A stretch of DNA of 64,000 nt, from assembly GCA_918797485.1 (NCBI GenBank), contig CAKKNE010000001.1, positions 5,332,001 to 5,396,000 of the forward strand. The letters run 5' to 3'. A program made the translations under genes and the position numbers. The notes below the pieces were generated by a model that was not told the DNA's origin, searched no databases, and saw only the letters and a program-made list of their open reading frames with translations. Source of the stretch: Pelagomonas calceolata. Its lineage: Eukaryota. Within the stretch, counting starts at the first letter, position 1; every line of letters begins with the position of its first letter. Below are positions 42,181 to 50,051 of this stretch, one piece after another.

Positions 42181-43290
42181 CTATAGGGGGCCGGCGAGGT
42201 AGGGCAACACAACACCCGGGGGCAGAGCGGCGACGCGCGACGCCGCCGGCGCCCGCTGCGGCGCCTGGGGGCACTCGCGCGCTTTCCGCACCCGCACCTC
42301 GTTTAGCTTCGCAAGCGCGCGGACGACGGCGCGGTTCTGAGAAGGTAATGAACGACGCATGTCCACGCACGTCTCCAGATGACGTTCCGCCTCCACGTAG
42401 TCGCCGCGGTGGCCTAAAGCAACCCCAAGGTTCTCGTGCGAGTTCGCGACGTCACTAGTAACGGCGTCGCGGCCGAAGACCGCGCGCTGCATATTTAAAG
42501 CCCGCTTGTGGTAATCGATAGCTTCGTCGTACGCTCCATTGTAATCCGAGACCACGCCCAGGTTGCCGAGAGCCTTCGCGACGTCCGCGTCATTACCAGG
42601 GTGCATCTGGGTCAAAACCGAGAGGGCCCGTTCGTACTCATGCTTCGCCTCGCGGTAGCGGCCTCTTCTACAAAGCGCGTTGCCTAAATTGAGGCGCGCG
42701 CAGGCCGCGTCCTTGGTCTCCAACATGTTCCGATGGGCATAAATCTCGAGGGCCTCGCGGAAGCGCTCCTCCTCGCCACTCGCGATGCCTAAATCATTCA
42801 AGACCGCGGCAACATTTGGGCCGTCTTCTCCATACGATCGCTTCTCCCGTAAGGCTCGCTCCAACGTCGCCGCGGCCCTCGAATCACCACAGTTCAGCAG
42901 CGCCGCTCCCAGCGCGTGGCGCGCCGCCGGAATATAATGAGACTCCTTCCGCAGGCTCCTTTCCAAAAACTCCTCGGCGAGCGCCACGGCGCCCGCTCCT
43001 CCATAAGTTGTGAGGCAGACGCCGCAGCGCCGCCACGCGTCCACGCGCGGTTCCACAGAACGCGCCCAGCGCGCTAAACAATGAACGTGGACGTGGGCCG
43101 AGTCGCCCCTACACGCGCAGGGTGTGATTAATTCACCTTCGTCACTCAAGCAGATGCGGCAGGCCGCTCCTTGTACTGTTGGGGCTTGGGGGCTGCCTTT
43201 CTTCGGCGGCGCGGCGTCGAGCGGCCGGTAGCTCGCCTGCGGCGATGTCTTGGGGCTGCCGTAGCTGCGCCGGCGGCCGAAGATGCCCAT
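42181..43290 (-). CDS. RING-CH (MARCH-type) zinc finger plus KLC-like TPR repeat protein
   Basis: CRICL…LITPCACRG…HVHCLARW…CGVC followed by TPRs (VAKALGNLG…AIDYHKRAL). Confidence 0.85.
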   Translation of the reverse strand: MGIFGRRRSYGSPKTSPQASYRPLDAAPPKKGSPQAPTVQGAACRICLSDEGELITPCACRGDSAHVHVHCLARWARSVEPRVDAWRRCGVCLTTYGGAGAVALAEEFLERSLRKESHYIPAARHALGAALLNCGDSRAAATLERALREKRSYGEDGPNVAAVLNDLGIASGEEERFREALEIYAHRNMLETKDAACARLNLGNALCRRGRYREAKHEYERALSVLTQMHPGNDADVAKALGNLGVVSDYNGAYDEAIDYHKRALNMQRAVFGRDAVTSDVANSHENLGVALGHRGDYVEAERHLETCVDMRRSLPSQNRAVVRALAKLNEVRVRKARECPQAPQRAPAASRVAALPPGVVLPYLAGPL

Positions 43291-43679: not shown

Positions 43680-44654
43680 ATGGCCCAGGACCGCTGGTAC
43701 GCGCCGGCCGTGCCCTTCGTCGCCGGCGCCGTCGCGGGCGGCACCGTCAAGACCTTCACGGCACCACTCTCTCGATCTACTATTTTACTACAGACGGCGG
43801 GCCGCAACCAACTCCAAACGAACGGTTCCGGCGCCCTGGTCCAGGCGTCGCAGTATTTGAGGCACGTGTCGACGACCGAAGGGCTGCGGAGCTTCTGGAA
43901 AGGCAATGGAGTGTCGATCCTCCAAAAGATGGCGACGACGGGCTCGAACTACTTTGTGTACGAAAGGTTGAAGGAAGCGTTGCGGTTCTGCTGGTCGTCT
44001 TCTGATGATGTGGGCTTCAAGGCGCGACTCCTGTGCGGCACGCTCGCCGGCGCCATCAACGTGACCGTGGCCTACCCTCTGGATTTAATCAGAACAAATA
44101 TCGCCTCGTCCCACGAGGCGGCGGCGCGCGGCTCGGAGTGGGCGGGCATCGTGGAGACGGCTTCATTGTTATACAAAGCGCACGGCCTTTCTGGATTCGC
44201 GCGCGGCCTGCCCGCGACGCAGCTCTGCCAGGGCGTCAATATCGGCCTCCACTTCGGCATCTACGAGACGCTGAACACGAACCCATACTATAGATCCGCC
44301 TTCGAGCGTGCGATGCCGCGGTCCTGGCGCACCGTCGACGACGACGGACGACCACGGACGTCCTTCGCCTACTCCATGGTCTGCGGCCAGTGTGCGGGGT
44401 TGGTGGCGTCTACTTTAGTGCAGCCGCTGGACCTCGTGAGAAGGCGGCAGCAGCTCCTAGGCTCGGGCGAGGGCCGCGTGAGCTTCTGGCGCGTGGCGTC
44501 GGACCTGGTGAGGATAGGCGGGGTCAAGGAGCTGTACCGGGGCCTCGCGCCGGAGCTCTGCAAGGTGTGCCTCTTCCCCGCGTCGGGCCTCAACTTCTAC
44601 GTCTACGAGCTCGTGCGCCAGGAGGTCTTTGGTGATAGGAGCGGGCGGCGGTAG
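43680..44654 (+). CDS. Mitochondrial carrier family protein
   Basis: Three repeats with PxSRS / PLDLIRT / PLDLVRRR signatures and FWKGN, LYRGL. Confidence 0.9.
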   Translation: MAQDRWYAPAVPFVAGAVAGGTVKTFTAPLSRSTILLQTAGRNQLQTNGSGALVQASQYLRHVSTTEGLRSFWKGNGVSILQKMATTGSNYFVYERLKEALRFCWSSSDDVGFKARLLCGTLAGAINVTVAYPLDLIRTNIASSHEAAARGSEWAGIVETASLLYKAHGLSGFARGLPATQLCQGVNIGLHFGIYETLNTNPYYRSAFERAMPRSWRTVDDDGRPRTSFAYSMVCGQCAGLVASTLVQPLDLVRRRQQLLGSGEGRVSFWRVASDLVRIGGVKELYRGLAPELCKVCLFPASGLNFYVYELVRQEVFGDRSGRR

Positions 44655-45002
44655 CTTTTTTGGCTTGTTAACTGTTTTTGTTTTTGCATATAGCGTCGAC
44701 GGCGTGTGTCCGTTGTCTTCAGCGAGCGCTCGTGACGCCGCTCGCGCTGCCCGGGTGAGCCTGTGGTGCTCCCTGAGCTGCCGCCCCGGCGCGCGTTGAT
44801 GGCTCGTCGATGGTGCGGCCCCCATGCGGTCCGAGGTGCGCGAGAGCCCTCCACGCCTGTCGCCGCGACTCCTTGCCAAGAATGAGCTGCATTAACCCGC
44901 ACCAGGTGGATGGTGAAGTTATTTCCCCGTCCAAGCTCGTCGCGCTCGGGAGGCGCCGGGCTGCCTTTGACGCTGCGAGGGCTGCCTCGGAGCGCCGAAA
45001 GC

Positions 45003-45863
45003 ATGGAGTACGGTGCCATAGATGAGCTGCCGGGCGAGGACGCGCCGCGACAGGCGAAACGGTACGCGGTGGGAGTTGTCACAGCTACCGCCCTGGTCGC
45101 CCTCGGTGCGACGTCCGCCATCCGGACGACGACGTCGCTGCGCGCCACGGCGCAGAACCCGACGGGACGGAGGGTCCAGGTCCACGCGTTCGCGGACGCC
45201 TTGTGACCCGACTGCCGCCGGCACGCGATGTCGCTGCACGACGTGATGTTGAGCAACGACGACCTGCTGGCGGCGATCGACCTGACGGTGGACTTCCACG
45301 GGAACGAAGCCTCGGTCGAGGAGCACGGGATGGTGCTGCTGGACGTGAACCGGAATCACCTCTGCGTCCAGCACGAGGCGGACCTGGACCAGACGGAGTG
45401 GTGGCCCACGGCGCACTGCATGTTCGGGTTGCAGGCCTGCCTGGATAATGATGGGTCGACCACTTGTGATCAAGCGGAGAGTGGTTCGGAGGACGACCTC
45501 ACTTTGAGTGGAGGCGAGACGGACCTCGCGAATTGCGACTGCTCGCTCGACGGCGTCACGTCCTACTGCCTCTCGAAATACACTTCGGTGGAGTGGTCCT
45601 CGCTGGACAAGACCTGCGACGTGTCGCGGCTCGCGAAGAAGTCGTCGGGCCGCGCGGCCCAGGCCGACGACGGGGCCACGCTCTGGGTCACCATCGACGG
45701 CATCAAATACACTTATGCCGAGGGCGCGGCCTACGGCGGCACGAACACGGAGGAAGGGTTCGGGGCTTGGGCCGCTCGAGTGATGGGCGTCGTGTGCCAG
45801 TCTGTGCAAAACGCGGGCCAGGCCGTGCCCGAATCGTGCGCGGGCTACTTCCCCCCGCACTAG
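45003..45863 (+). CDS. Putative GILT-like thioredoxin-fold selenoprotein (Sec TGA at 45204-45206, UxxC)
   Basis: One frame spans ORFs 44910-45206 and 45228-45863: MEYGAI…TM…VQVHAFADAL-U-PDC…WVTIDG; SECIS-like hairpin 16 nt after TAG. Confidence 0.85.
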
Positions 45864-45878
45864 ATCGCTGCGGCGTGA

Positions 45879-45955
45879 CGTCGAGGTCCGATGCTGATGA
45901 CGGAGCGGCACCGATACTGGTGCCGCTCCCGAGATAAACCTTTCGGGCCTTGGCG
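45879..45955 (+). promoter_or_regulatory. SECIS element
   Basis: Helix I 45879-45891 / 45943-45955 (13 bp with G-U pairs); ATGAC core 45897-45901; perfect 11-bp helix II GGAGCGGCACC / GGTGCCGCTCC; loop GATACT; CGAG 45930-45933. Confidence 0.8.
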
Positions 45956-46038
45956 GCGCGCGCGCGGTTTCCCCTCCCCTTTGCTGTTTCTAAGGAGGAT
46001 TTGTTTTCTAATTTGGCTCTCGAACTTGCTTTCGACTC

Positions 46039-46064
46039 GCTAGCGGCCTGTAAGACACACTAGC
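46039..46064. promoter_or_regulatory. Recurrent intergenic CTAG motif copy (reverse)
   Basis: GCTAGCGGCCTGTAAGACACACTAGC. Confidence 0.7.
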
Positions 46065-46299
46065 AAAGCGCCGAGCGCTTTTGCGAGCGCCTTTTTGCCG
46101 CGATCCCTGGACCAGTTGCAGCCGCGACTAGACCAGAGGCGCAGTCCTTGTGTATTTTCGACGCCTGCGACGTCAGCGCCATCATCGGTGCTCGACACGC
46201 CAATTGCTCACTGACCGCGTTTAGAGAAACTCGCGGGTAACTCGCCGGACACCGCGCCGTCTGCATATAGAACTTGCCGTCGCCGTGCCGCTGTACGCC

Positions 46300-47160
46300 A
46301 TGCATCACCTCCTGGCAGTGCTGAGCCTCGCGACCGCGCTCGTCGCGCCGACGCGGCGCCAGACAACTCGCCTCCGCGCCGCGTCGCTCGAGAAGAAGGG
46401 CGACGATTATATTTTTGAGGACATCGCGAAGAACTTGGGAAAAGGAGACCAGGACCGCCTGTACCAGTACCAACTGGAGCTCGCCGAGCGCTACGGCGAG
46501 GACAAGATCGGTCGCGCGGCGCCGCCGCCGAAGCCCAAGAAACCGAAGCAGGGGGGCACCGTAGTCGTCGAGGCCGTGACGACGACGCCGAGGACGAAGG
46601 CCGTCGTCGCACCGCGCAACTCCAAACTCCGCTGGCGAGGCCTCGTGTGCGGCGCCGCGGTGGCGTTGTTTTTGACGCCTGGGTTTTTGGAGTACTTGAT
46701 CAGCGTCCGGACGAAGGCGCTCGCCCTCGAGAAGTCGCTCGAGGCGCTCTTATTAGCAGTGGCGGCGCCGGCGACGGACGCGCTCTCCGCTGCGTGCGGC
46801 GCCGCCGCGCCCATCTGCGCATCGGCCTACGGCTCCGTCGCCGCCACCGCGGCCGGTGCGTATGGTGCGGCCGCGCCCGCCTGCGCCAAGGCTTGTAGTA
46901 GCGTCGGCGCGGCGGCGTCGTCGGCCTGCGGCGGCATCTCGGCGGCGGCCGGATCGGCCTCCGCCTCTCTTGCACCGCTCGCGGCCAAGGTTGGCTCGGC
47001 CGTGGGTTCAGCGTACAGTAGCGTCTCCGCGACCAAGGTCGGCGCTGCGGTGACGAGCGGCGTCGCCAAGGCGAGTGCGCGGGTCGGACCGCCCCTGGCC
47101 CGCGTCTGGAGTTTCTTGGTCAATTGGAAGGGATTGATCTTCTGGCGACCTGGAAATTAA
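46300..47160 (+). CDS. Ala-rich membrane protein, possibly plastid-targeted
   Basis: MHHLLAVLSLATA/LVAP signal plus transit-like segment; one TM; Ala/Ser/Gly repeats. Confidence 0.6.
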   Translation: MHHLLAVLSLATALVAPTRRQTTRLRAASLEKKGDDYIFEDIAKNLGKGDQDRLYQYQLELAERYGEDKIGRAAPPPKPKKPKQGGTVVVEAVTTTPRTKAVVAPRNSKLRWRGLVCGAAVALFLTPGFLEYLISVRTKALALEKSLEALLLAVAAPATDALSAACGAAAPICASAYGSVAATAAGAYGAAAPACAKACSSVGAAASSACGGISAAAGSASASLAPLAAKVGSAVGSAYSSVSATKVGAAVTSGVAKASARVGPPLARVWSFLVNWKGLIFWRPGN

Positions 47161-47306: not shown

Positions 47307-50051
47307 ATGTCCTCACACATCTTGCTGTTCCTCACGCTTGCGGCGCCAGGTGCATCACCCGCGTCACACAGCTCACAATTTGCTTTCGCAGCGCACGCGT
47401 CGTCATTCGTGGCGGGCGCGCGTCGTCGTGGCGCCGCGACATACGCTCACATACCCCACATGGCGCAATTGCGCCAACGCTCCGGGCGAGCGGAGCACGA
47501 GGTCCCGCGCCGGGACGCTCTCGACGCCGCGACGATGAAACTTCCCGAAAATCAATCATACGCCCGCGCTCGTCGGCGCTCGGTCGAAAGCACATCAACC
47601 GGATCGCGCGCAGGCGTTCAAGGCCACGGCTACATGACCGAGCCGCCCTCGCGCCAGTACGAGGCGTACAAGGCGAACGGTTGGCCGAACCAAGTGGCCG
47701 AGTACGATCCGCATGGCGTCGCTGCCGGAGGCATGTATGCCGACTGCGACGGCTGCCGGTCGCGCGACTGGTTCGGCCCGAACCCGTGGTCGGAGCCCGG
47801 TACGGCGAAGCATTTGGACTTCATTATGGGTGGGACCGGCGGCAACATCCTCGGCGTCTGCGGCGCCTCGCCGTCGCGGGACAACGACTACAACACGCCT
47901 CTGGATGGGCACTGGGGCATGAGCGCCAAGACCACCTACAAAGCCGGCGACGTGATTGACGTATCCTGGTGCGTGTCCGCAGACCACGGTGGCATCCCAC
48001 AGTTCCGCTTATGCGATGACGAAGGCCTCGTGTCAGCTGTGACGACGCCCGACAAGCCGCCGAGCCTCGCGGACCTCGAGGCGCTCGAGCAGTGCTTCCA
48101 ACGCGGTCTTCTGCGGTGCGACGACGTCCCCGGTCAGGACTGCTCCCAGGTCGAGGTCTGCGACACCTACGCTAAAGACTGGGGCGCCTGCTCCGATCCC
48201 GGCCAATTCCTGCACTGCCGGGACGAGAAATCGACCGAGGGCAAGTACTGGGCGTGCGTCAACACGCAGGAGACGTGCGACCACGGGTTCATGGCCCGCT
48301 ACAAGCTCAAGATCCCCGAGTCCTTCCCGGCCTCGCAGCACACCATTCTCTCGTACCGGTGGGACACGTACGAGAACAACGAGGTCTTCGTCGGGTGCGC
48401 CGACGTCGCGATCACGCCGGACGGCGACGCGGCGCCCGTGACGCCTAGGCCGACGCCGCGGCCCACGAAGGGCGACGTCGCCACGCCCAAGCCGACGCCG
48501 CGCCCGACGATCAAAGACGAGGTGCCCGCCACGCCCCGCCCGACCTCCAAGCCGACGGCCGCCTCCGGTGGTGAAGACGACGACGCCGACGCCTACTGCT
48601 GCCAGAACGACGGCAAGTCGTGTGACGGGTGCTCGTGGATCGCGCCGCCAGGCAACTACTGCGCCCAGAGCGAGAGCAACTGCGGTAACTGCGGCGAGCA
48701 GTTCGCCTGGTGCGGCGATGGTGCCGTGACGGACGACGAGCCCGCGCCGGCGACGCCCCGGCCGACCGTCAAGCCCACGGCCGCGGCGCCTCAGACGCCC
48801 CGGCCGACGCCCAGACCCCAAGCCAACAACGATGACGGCTCGTCTGGCGGCGAGGGCTACTGCTGCTTCTGGCCCGAGGGCCCCGGTGGCTGCGGCCAGT
48901 GCACGTCGCCGGCGGGCCCCGAGAACTGGTGCGCCAAGGGCCGCAAGGAGCAGTGTCTCGTGCATCGCGTCGATGGCGTGTATCGCGTGAACCTTATATT
49001 CCACACAGGCAAAGAGTGCGTCGAGGACTGCGGCCACACGTGGTGCGACGGCGGCTCGCCCGTGACCGACGACGGCGACACTGATGACCGTGCGACGTGC
49101 GACCTTCCCGAGGCCGGCGCGCCGGTGGACGCCAGTGGCTTCGTAGAGAAGCACGGCAAGCTCCGCCTCGACGGCGTCCAGCTCGTCGATGAAAACGGCG
49201 CCCCGGTGCAGCTCCTGGGCATGTCGAGTCACGGCCTCCACTGGTTCCCCGACTGCTACACCTTCGAGGCGGTCGAACACCTGGTCAAAACCTGGGGCAC
49301 TACTGTTTTCCGGGCGGCGATGTACGTCGGCGAGGGCGGCTACGCGTCGGACCCGTCGGTCAAGCAGAAGGTCAAGGACATCGTCGCGTGGACGAAGCAG
49401 CTCGGCATCTACTGCATCATCGACTGGCACGTCCTCACGCCGGGCGACCCCAACGCTAACACCTACTCGGGCGCCGTCGACTTCTGGACCGAGATGGCGA
49501 CGCTCTACAAGGACGAAGACCACGTTATCTACGAGATCGCGAACGAGCCGAACGGCGTGGCCTGGTCTCGCGTGAAAGAGTACCACAATCGTATTATTGG
49601 GGCGATCCGAGCCATCGACGCGGAATCGATCATCATCGCGGGCACGACGACGTGGTCCCAGGACATTCATCTCGCTGCGGACGAGCCAGTCGCCGAGTCG
49701 TACAACGTCATGTACGCGTTCCACTTCTACGCCTGTTCCCACGGCTCGCTGCTGCAGCGCGTCAAGGACTACCGAACGAAGATACCTATCTTCGTCTCAG
49801 AGTGGGGCACGTCGTCGTATAGCGGCGACGGAGGGGTGTGCGCGTGTGAGGCCAAGGAGTTCCTCGACGTGTTCTCGGACAAGGACGGCTCGGGCGGCGG
49901 CATCAAGCTGTCGATGGCGCAGTGGTCCTGGGCCGACAAGAGCGAGTCCTCCGCCGCGCTCGCGCCGGGCGCGTGCCGCAGCGACTGGGACTCGCTCTCG
50001 GAGTCGGGCGAGTTCCTTCGGGCCTACGTCCGCGACGCGACGCGTGCCTGA
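47307..50051 (+). CDS. Secreted AA13-like LPMO - PT linker - 2x Cys-rich module - GH5 endoglucanase fusion; introns 47350-47613 (GT-AG) and 48943-49008 (GC-AG)
   Basis: Spliced 18-aa signal MSSHILLFLTLAAPGVQG then His1 HGYMTEPPSR; WCVSADHGG; EVFVGCADVAI; GH5 GMSSHGLHW, IIDWH, IANEP, FHFY, VSEWG. Confidence 0.85.
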   Translation: MSSHILLFLTLAAPGASPASHSSQFAFAAHASSFVAGARRRGAATYAHIPHMAQLRQRSGRAEHEVPRRDALDAATMKLPENQSYARARRRSVESTSTGSRAGVQGHGYMTEPPSRQYEAYKANGWPNQVAEYDPHGVAAGGMYADCDGCRSRDWFGPNPWSEPGTAKHLDFIMGGTGGNILGVCGASPSRDNDYNTPLDGHWGMSAKTTYKAGDVIDVSWCVSADHGGIPQFRLCDDEGLVSAVTTPDKPPSLADLEALEQCFQRGLLRCDDVPGQDCSQVEVCDTYAKDWGACSDPGQFLHCRDEKSTEGKYWACVNTQETCDHGFMARYKLKIPESFPASQHTILSYRWDTYENNEVFVGCADVAITPDGDAAPVTPRPTPRPTKGDVATPKPTPRPTIKDEVPATPRPTSKPTAASGGEDDDADAYCCQNDGKSCDGCSWIAPPGNYCAQSESNCGNCGEQFAWCGDGAVTDDEPAPATPRPTVKPTAAAPQTPRPTPRPQANNDDGSSGGEGYCCFWPEGPGGCGQCTSPAGPENWCAKGRKEQCLVHRVDGVYRVNLIFHTGKECVEDCGHTWCDGGSPVTDDGDTDDRATCDLPEAGAPVDASGFVEKHGKLRLDGVQLVDENGAPVQLLGMSSHGLHWFPDCYTFEAVEHLVKTWGTTVFRAAMYVGEGGYASDPSVKQKVKDIVAWTKQLGIYCIIDWHVLTPGDPNANTYSGAVDFWTEMATLYKDEDHVIYEIANEPNGVAWSRVKEYHNRIIGAIRAIDAESIIIAGTTTWSQDIHLAADEPVAESYNVMYAFHFYACSHGSLLQRVKDYRTKIPIFVSEWGTSSYSGDGGVCACEAKEFLDVFSDKDGSGGGIKLSMAQWSWADKSESSAALAPGACRSDWDSLSESGEFLRAYVRDATRA
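48951..49008 (+). mobile_element. Short introner element in the LPMO-GH5 gene
   Basis: TSD GCAAGGAG (48943-48950) / GCAAAGAG (49009-49016); ends CAGTGT…TTCCACACAG; core CGCGTCGATGGCGTG. Confidence 0.8.

Follow-up and report, generated by a model that had tools for sequence, protein, structure and literature searches.

The 64,000-nucleotide stretch of Pelagomonas calceolata DNA analysed here (the window) contains a gene with an in-frame TGA at its 68th codon, raising the question of whether this codon ends translation or is read as selenocysteine (Sec), and what protein would result. The evidence presented below describes a transcribed gene in which the conserved UGA is, with good confidence, read as Sec. 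The product would be a protein of 286 residues, predicted to be anchored in a membrane and to act as a GILT-like thiol-disulfide oxidoreductase through its U-P-D-C site. The coordinates of the gene and its features are listed in Table 1.

Table 1. Features of the candidate selenoprotein gene; positions are those of the window.
Feature	Position	Strand	Description and basis
mRNA	44944..46011	+	No intron seen; 5′ ends at ~44944–44955, poly(A) at 46011, first ATG at 45003
Coding sequence	45003..45863	+	286 aa, GILT-like thioredoxin/DsbA-fold protein; translation, Pfam, conservation, predicted structure
YG[A/S]I, possible tyrosine sorting motif	45009..45020	+	MEYGxID kept in 8/8 close sequences; putative function
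Hydrophobic segment, predicted signal-anchor	45066..45122	+	Residues 22–40, hydropathy 1.89, after RQAKR
In-frame TGA and U-P-D-C motif	45204..45215	+	Translation, RNA reads, related loci; model strand 58–64 then helix 69–83
Predicted SRE-like hairpin	45213..45275	+	Starts 6 nt after UGA; 11-bp basal stem, 45213–45223 with 45265–45275
GILT signature remnant	45318..45365	+	H108-G109, N116 and C121 at signature spacing; E106 and L113 in place of its first two cysteines
SECIS-shaped element	45886..45948	+	Helix I 45886–45891/45943–45948; helix II 45902–45913/45918–45929
SECIS-shaped element, core	AUGAC 45897–45901/CGAG 45930–45933	+	Tetraloop AUAC, no apical AA

Reading Frame and Annotation

Translation of positions 45003 to 45863 on the positive strand yields one frame that ends in TAG and contains a single TGA, codon 68 (45204–45206), in the context HAFADAL-U-PDC. 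An earlier sequence-only reading of this DNA had proposed such a hidden frame, with the TGA at codon 68 forming a U-P-D-C motif and about 220 codons beyond it; the translation confirms the frame, the stop-free run counts 218 codons, and the MEYGAI start, the hydrophobic stretch and the LWVTIDG segment named in that reading are all present. As that reading had noticed, the gene is split in the standard ORF list: one entry stops at the TGA, and a second, of 211 aa, starts at M76. The truncation that it expected from standard annotation is likewise found in public collections, which contain the 211-aa product only; the window's own fragment is recorded in NCBI and UniRef, in a cluster of 269 members.

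Over the 40 codons 3′ of the codon-68 TGA, GC3 is 0.97, compared with 0.27–0.75 over the equivalent stretch beyond 10 other long, high-GC3 ORFs of the window (GC content 62.7%) that end in TGA. By this comparison, the coding signal downstream of the TGA exceeds chance. Global reassignment of TGA was considered and ruled out, as TGA terminates 10 of the 27 long, high-GC3 ORFs in the window and GC3 is lower beyond these stops; the genetic code is therefore standard.

Transcript

RNA evidence came from a single sample sequenced in two stranded poly(A) runs (X21 and X22), together with assembled contigs; some 6% of each run was used, yielding 6248 and 7415 placed reads. The raw reads define one transcript, the limits of which were placed from read ends and from poly(A) loose ends (Table 1), with a depth of 500–770 over the gene and of 506 (X21) and 631 (X22) in the bin containing the TGA. 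These reads contain no splice joint across the TGA and, at a 3% threshold, no alternative base within it, so that neither an intron removing the codon nor a sequence error for TGC or TGT, the two outcomes named beforehand as contrary to a Sec codon, was seen. A full-length contig (44938–46011) has no differences from the window, and contigs from two further studies also span the TGA with no differences. An ATG scan places the first ATG of the transcript at 45003; an in-frame ATG further upstream, at 44910, was rejected as the start, being located 5′ of the transcript start. The sole listed joint skips 45888–45922 in eight reads, has non-splice ends and lies within the 3′UTR hairpin described below, and is read as a reverse-transcriptase jump.

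Two other observations concern this transcript. Both raw runs have a cluster of minor read differences (3–9%) at 45586–45657, accompanied by loose ends close to 45657; in predicted fold stability this region ranks second within the gene, and the cluster is probably a library artefact. The sequence immediately 5′ of the ATG (44950–45002) is about 40 nt shorter than, and otherwise different from, that of the related metagenomic loci L001–L004 and L007 (1348–1500), although the coding sequence is 91–92% identical to these close alleles, among which synonymous divergence is high (dS 0.2–0.7).

Predicted Fold and Relationship to GILT

The only family match of the protein is Pfam GILT (PF03227), over residues 60–142 with an E-value of 7.6e-4 and 20.2 bits, below the gathering cut-off of 22.4. 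The same family is matched at E ≤ 1 by 10 of 12 aligned members; among nine relatives, seven score 15.6–17.3 bits and two have no match. Sequence searches of the PDB with the protein and two profiles returned chance matches only, none of them GILT. An AlphaFold2 model built from 23 sequences (pLDDT 71; residues 1–52 below 50) places a strand at residues 58–64, after which the U-P-D-C site would open a helix spanning residues 69–83. Foldseek returns mouse GILT (6NWX) as the top match for this model (E 2e-4), and the same structure ranks first in a VIA-align search of 48,161 chains (Z 16.4, rmsd 2.6, 171 residues aligned), followed by DsbA (Z 13.4) and VSR1 (Z 12.9). A GILT/thioredoxin fold is supported for the modelled protein by these structure comparisons.

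The GILT of mammals and plants (IFI30/OSH1; PF03227; 6NWX) provides the best fold match, over residues 53–284 of the query, at 14–18% identity. Features shared with it are an xxC that opens the first helix and the H-G...N...C residues at exact spacing. The protein has 11 cysteines, 10 of them invariant across the subfamily, which may correspond to the 10–11 conserved in GILT. The GILT active site is of the CxxC or CxxS type and follows the first strand, an arrangement that UxxC would fit if the UGA encodes Sec, with Sec then presumably in the place of the first Cys. The late strand of GILT is preceded by Pro (VPW); this Pro is absent from the 286-aa protein (GATLW). There is no N-x-S/T sequon for N-glycosylation in the protein, which also has an extra acidic, Cys-containing segment at approximately residues 147–180, and its predicted anchor follows a charged 21-residue tail, whereas GILT has an N-terminal signal peptide. 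Where the GILT signature is CQHGx2ECx2Nx4C, as printed with other GILT features in PMC7017176, the query reads EEHGMVLLDVNRNHLC; H, G, N and the final C are retained here, but C, Q, E and C are replaced, and both leading signature cysteines are thereby lost. Because the Pfam score is below the cut-off, both of these cysteines are lost and sequons are lacking, the protein is filed as GILT-like and not as a canonical GILT. The earlier proposal of a divergent, Sec-containing GILT oxidoreductase is supported in its fold and its UGA; it needs qualifying in that a Sec-GILT family had already been reported and in that the protein is GILT-like rather than canonical.

The N-terminal region contains the single hydrophobic segment of the protein, with a Kyte-Doolittle value of 1.89 for residues 22–40 compared to 0.8 for the best later segment. 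Because residues 1–52 have a pLDDT below 50, the topology rests on hydropathy; a type II arrangement that places the catalytic domain in the lumen is reasonably likely. Ahead of this segment, MEYGxID is conserved in all eight close sequences whereas residues 8–14 vary, suggesting that YGAI may have a sorting role; the YG[A/S]I motif is absent from the Ser-form relatives described below. The odds of a lysosome-type location are about even.

Sec insertion would also be compatible with a different role, in which the protein is an oxidase, isomerase or client-binding domain of the ER or Golgi, like DsbA or the thioredoxin domain of vacuolar sorting receptors (VSR), and not a lysosome-type reductase. 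This is possible, although on balance unlikely. Such a role would suit the missing signature cysteines, sequons and late-strand Pro, the position of DsbA and VSR1 directly after GILT in the fold search, and the persistence of relatives with SxxC or SxxS, which suggests function without a full redox pair; however, GILT is 3 Z units above the next row and is the sole Pfam match, H-G...N...C is found at signature spacing, and YG[A/S]I is kept in 8/8 close sequences.

SECIS-Shaped Element in the 3′UTR

A GILT-like selenoprotein would depend on a Sec insertion element, and a candidate is predicted in the 148-nt 3′UTR. The first 97 nt fold at −53 kcal/mol (z −4.49), with none of 200 shuffles as low, into a SECIS-shaped stem comprising helix I, an internal loop, the AUGAC/CGAG core and a 12-bp helix II. 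The ATGAC/CGA core is kept in 8/8 sequences, and 95.1% of cells in the stem are paired, compared with 31–49% when the partners are slid. Covariation, computed for this stem and for the coding-sequence hairpin on close sequences only, is not significant here (97 of 500 shuffles as high). A loose stability filter lets through five other sites of the 64 kb besides the candidate, or six of the 109 that fit the pattern. A second RUGA...GA site in the 3′UTR, at 45875, was rejected; its helix reaches −3.7 kcal/mol and it was not found in L002, L005 or L006. A search of Rfam over 44600–46400 gave four weak matches, none to SECIS.

With eukaryotic type I SECIS elements the candidate shares helix I, the internal loop, the AUGA/GA core, the 12-bp helix II and a location in the 3′UTR, about 690 nt past the UGA, and it has the two helices and the AUGA/GA of the simpler SECIS definition. 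It differs from the canonical definition, which includes apical AA/CC and a KGAW 3′ core: there is no conserved apical AA, the tetraloop is AUAC or ACUU, a CC located 10 nt past the core is base-paired and lacks conservation, and the 3′ core, CGAG or CGAA, does not fit the KGAW consensus given in PMC3753652. Lineage-specific SECIS forms have been described for Ostreococcus and Toxoplasma.

Predicted Hairpin Downstream of the UGA

The 75 nt that follow the UGA have a predicted folding energy of −39.0 kcal/mol, compared with −23.4 ± 3.9 kcal/mol for within-gene synonymous codon shuffles, none of which (0/1000) is as stable, and the pair probabilities in the basal stem are 0.91–1.0. When scanned in codon steps, 6 of the 262 windows of the gene reach z ≤ −3.5, all of them at the hairpin, as opposed to none of 852 in three neighbouring control genes, where the nearest value is −3.48. 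A codon-usage null shifts z-scores downwards, and the within-gene shuffles and the codon-step scan constitute the fairer test.

When eight sequences are compared, the longest stretches of the coding sequence without any change are 45202–45227 and 45253–45274, in which the two arms of the hairpin sit, and 10 of the 11 basal pairs are kept in 8/8, through invariance and not covariation. The chance of synonymous invariance over three codons per arm is approximately 0.04 and 0.03, values that assume independent sites, which is untrue of related alleles. Among the matches listed, marine RNA from three of four runs has unbroken, identical contigs over 45202–45310 or 45202–45328. No compensatory change was found in the stem among these close sequences, and the structure is for this reason predicted, not proven; the stem also overlaps the conserved active-site helix.

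This predicted hairpin resembles a Sec redefinition element (SRE). The spacer between the UGA and the SRE of SELENON is 6 nt, equal to the spacer found here. SREs have been described for SELENON, SELENOT and SPS2 (PMC8704476, PMC4561486, PMC2248747, PMC3541580), and the arrangement of a coding-sequence stem-loop just 3′ of the Sec UGA combined with a 3′UTR SECIS is shared; here, the hairpin is 63 nt in length with an 11-bp basal stem, is found in an ochrophyte alga and has no covariation, and it is likened to these elements by structure. No paper on an algal SRE was found in literature searches; according to PMC4561486, however, every eukaryotic SPS gene with a UGA has an SRE, and algal genes may be among them. 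The sequence-only reading is supported in its assignment of Sec and had overlooked both the SECIS-shaped element and the post-UGA hairpin.

The same two elements could be explained by programmed readthrough that is independent of selenium, with a near-cognate tRNA inserting Cys, Trp or Arg and the 3′UTR stem not acting as a working SECIS. The C that follows the UGA, the very stable hairpin after it, the reported capacity of SREs to yield Sec-independent readthrough without a SECIS (PMC4561486) and the non-canonical form of the candidate SECIS, with no Rfam match, agree with such decoding, but the diverged loci L005 and L006 preserve AUGAC...CGA and helix I while differing in the flanking loops, the UGA occupies the predicted nucleophile position, and pelagophytes have the largest reported eukaryotic selenoproteomes (PMC7539508). 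Selenium-free decoding is highly unlikely, and the UGA is very likely translated by Sec insertion that the SECIS candidate directs and the downstream hairpin assists.

Conservation of the UGA and Distribution of Relatives

A metagenome scan led from 67 pattern matches to eight related loci, one of which (L008) stops short of codon 68. The TGA is present at codon 68 in all seven loci covering it, down to 83% protein identity (two loci at 83%), and the outcome named beforehand as contrary to the Sec reading, homologues with neither Cys nor Sec at this position, is not seen in these close homologues. In L005, dN and dS are 0.114 and 0.622 before the TGA and 0.126 and 0.637 after it, with lower values in close alleles; a dN/dS of about 0.2 or lower on either side indicates purifying selection on both halves. 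The transcript, in which no intron was seen, the conserved UGA and the selection on both sides of it are the established part of this account.

These loci also bear on the UGA as a true stop, whereby a 67-aa membrane peptide would be an upstream ORF and a protein of 205–211 aa would arise by reinitiation at M76 or M82. Public collections contain the 211-aa product as well as separately called upstream ORFs, as this would predict; however, M76, the annotated start, is CTG (Leu) in L005 and L006, the DNA encoding P69–A75, between the TGA and M76, is invariant in 8/8 sequences, the Ser-form relatives encode both halves as a single chain, the model puts strand 58–64 inside the domain, and the short product would have neither targeting signal nor active site. 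Termination at codon 68 is most improbable on these grounds. A pseudogene, an assembly error or a hidden intron, for which no supporting point was found, is already refuted by reads and contigs that show the TGA and no splice, by the TGA in 7/7 independent contigs and by dN far below dS on both sides.

Word-seeded searches, a full HMMER search and a cluster look-up yielded 126 proteins, of which 17 terminate immediately ahead of codon 68. A further 73 fit a loose pattern for starts at the equivalents of M76 or M82, many of the latter being near-identical cluster members. Seven besides the query span the site, and all seven have Ser (SPDC, SADC, STDS). No Cys-form homologue was found among the 126 proteins by the word-seeded and full HMMER searches, and the homologues with Cys at the TGA position on which the sequence-only reading had counted did not appear. 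Because the full-length relatives carry Ser, the putative equivalence of codon 68 to the first Cys of the GILT CxxC rests on its position in the fold and on the Pfam match. These Ser-form relatives (P0017, P0053, P0059, P0113, P0114, P0115 and P0028) have 31–39% identity, most share the kind of N-terminal hydrophobic segment together with an acidic tail, and they are possibly non-catalytic or monothiol paralogues.

The closest named relative, from Aureococcus anophagefferens (Pelagophyceae), is a hypothetical protein with 54% identity that starts after the site (KAH8096416.1). Taken with the GC content of the window, this relative points to a pelagophyte host. A relative with approximately 39% identity, in a truncated record, is found in Octactis speculum, and the subfamily therefore extends to Dictyochophyceae. 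The position at which the records of distant relatives are truncated suggests that they may also have the TGA. Searches of viral contigs gave 16 pattern matches and no relatives, and no tRNA was found in any of the eight loci.

Proposed Mechanism

Translation would initiate at 45003 and proceed to codon 68, where the 3′UTR element would recruit SBP2, eEFSec and Sec-tRNA, and where the UGA-C context and the downstream hairpin would disfavour termination, perhaps offsetting the absent apical AA. Residues 22–40 would anchor the product with its cysteine-rich domain in an endomembrane lumen. In this compartment, substrate disulfides would be attacked by Sec68, and the mixed selenylsulfide so formed would be resolved by Cys71. 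The selenol of Sec remains reactive at acidic pH. The YG[A/S]I motif in the cytosolic tail may direct the protein to the vacuole or lysosome, the protein having no N-glycan sites for a glycan-based route. We give this disulfide-reducing cycle of Sec68 and Cys71, in an acidic compartment reached via YG[A/S]I, an equal chance of being right or wrong.

Neighbouring Genes

A mitochondrial carrier gene (PF00153; 43680–44654, positive strand) is located directly upstream, in an order kept in 7/7 loci that reach it; no functional link is evident. Downstream, a gene of 286 aa (46300–47160, positive strand) with an Ala/Ser-rich middle and no Pfam match is syntenic in seven loci and has a read depth of approximately 1% of that over the selenoprotein candidate. 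Further genes include one on the negative strand (42181–43290) encoding a RINGv and TPR-repeat protein, with a stable predicted fold in its coding sequence near nucleotides 240–330 (z about −3.4), and a 914-aa ORF on the positive strand (47307–50051) with Pro/Thr-rich linkers, the C-terminal region of which resembles a glycoside hydrolase family 5 cellulase.

Relationship to Known Sec-GILT Proteins and Significance

Because proteins of the Sec-GILT kind were already reported in 2008, the finding is less surprising than it would otherwise be. PMC2398784 describes three such GOS sequences, one with a SECIS; a "GILT superfamily protein" is named among Aureococcus selenoproteins in the Fig. 6 legend of PMC5917014, two supplements of which have no GILT entry; and GILT is listed among the least widespread algal selenoproteins in PMC7539508. 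With the Sec-GILT of marine eukaryotes the gene has in common a GILT-type domain with putative Sec, a marine eukaryotic host and a 3′UTR SECIS candidate, and an Aureococcus homologue exists (KAH8096416.1). The GOS set was aligned to Cys homologues and its SECIS found by SECISearch (PMC2398784), whereas here there is no detectable Cys homologue and the stem lacks AA. The gene is a divergent variant of this kind, likened to the published Sec-GILTs by description and not by sequence. No literature on a Pelagomonas calceolata selenoprotein was found, although this subfamily and its SECIS form may already have been published.

The selenoprotein candidate is well supported, and its most interesting feature is the pairing of a SECIS without apical AA with a strong post-UGA hairpin, both of them predicted. 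A broader proposal is that pelagophytes and dictyochophytes have an unreported group of membrane-anchored GILT-like selenoenzymes, with Sec or Ser and never Cys, encoded by an abundant mRNA that is recoded by an AA-less SECIS dependent on a long coding-sequence hairpin. This is rather doubtful in its entirety; if true, recoding outside animals would here depend on a signal of two elements, one overlooked by standard SECIS models, and algal selenoproteomes would be undercounted.

The public records of the subfamily, hypothetical proteins without anchor and active site, represent a systematic mis-annotation that the reading proposed here would correct. The locus also offers a natural test of SECIS function without apical adenines and of the relevance of SRE-type hairpins outside animals, and the Sec/Ser pair permits a test of catalytic versus non-catalytic GILT-like function. 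For the open-ocean picoalgae themselves, the gene adds an abundantly transcribed candidate to their selenium demand.
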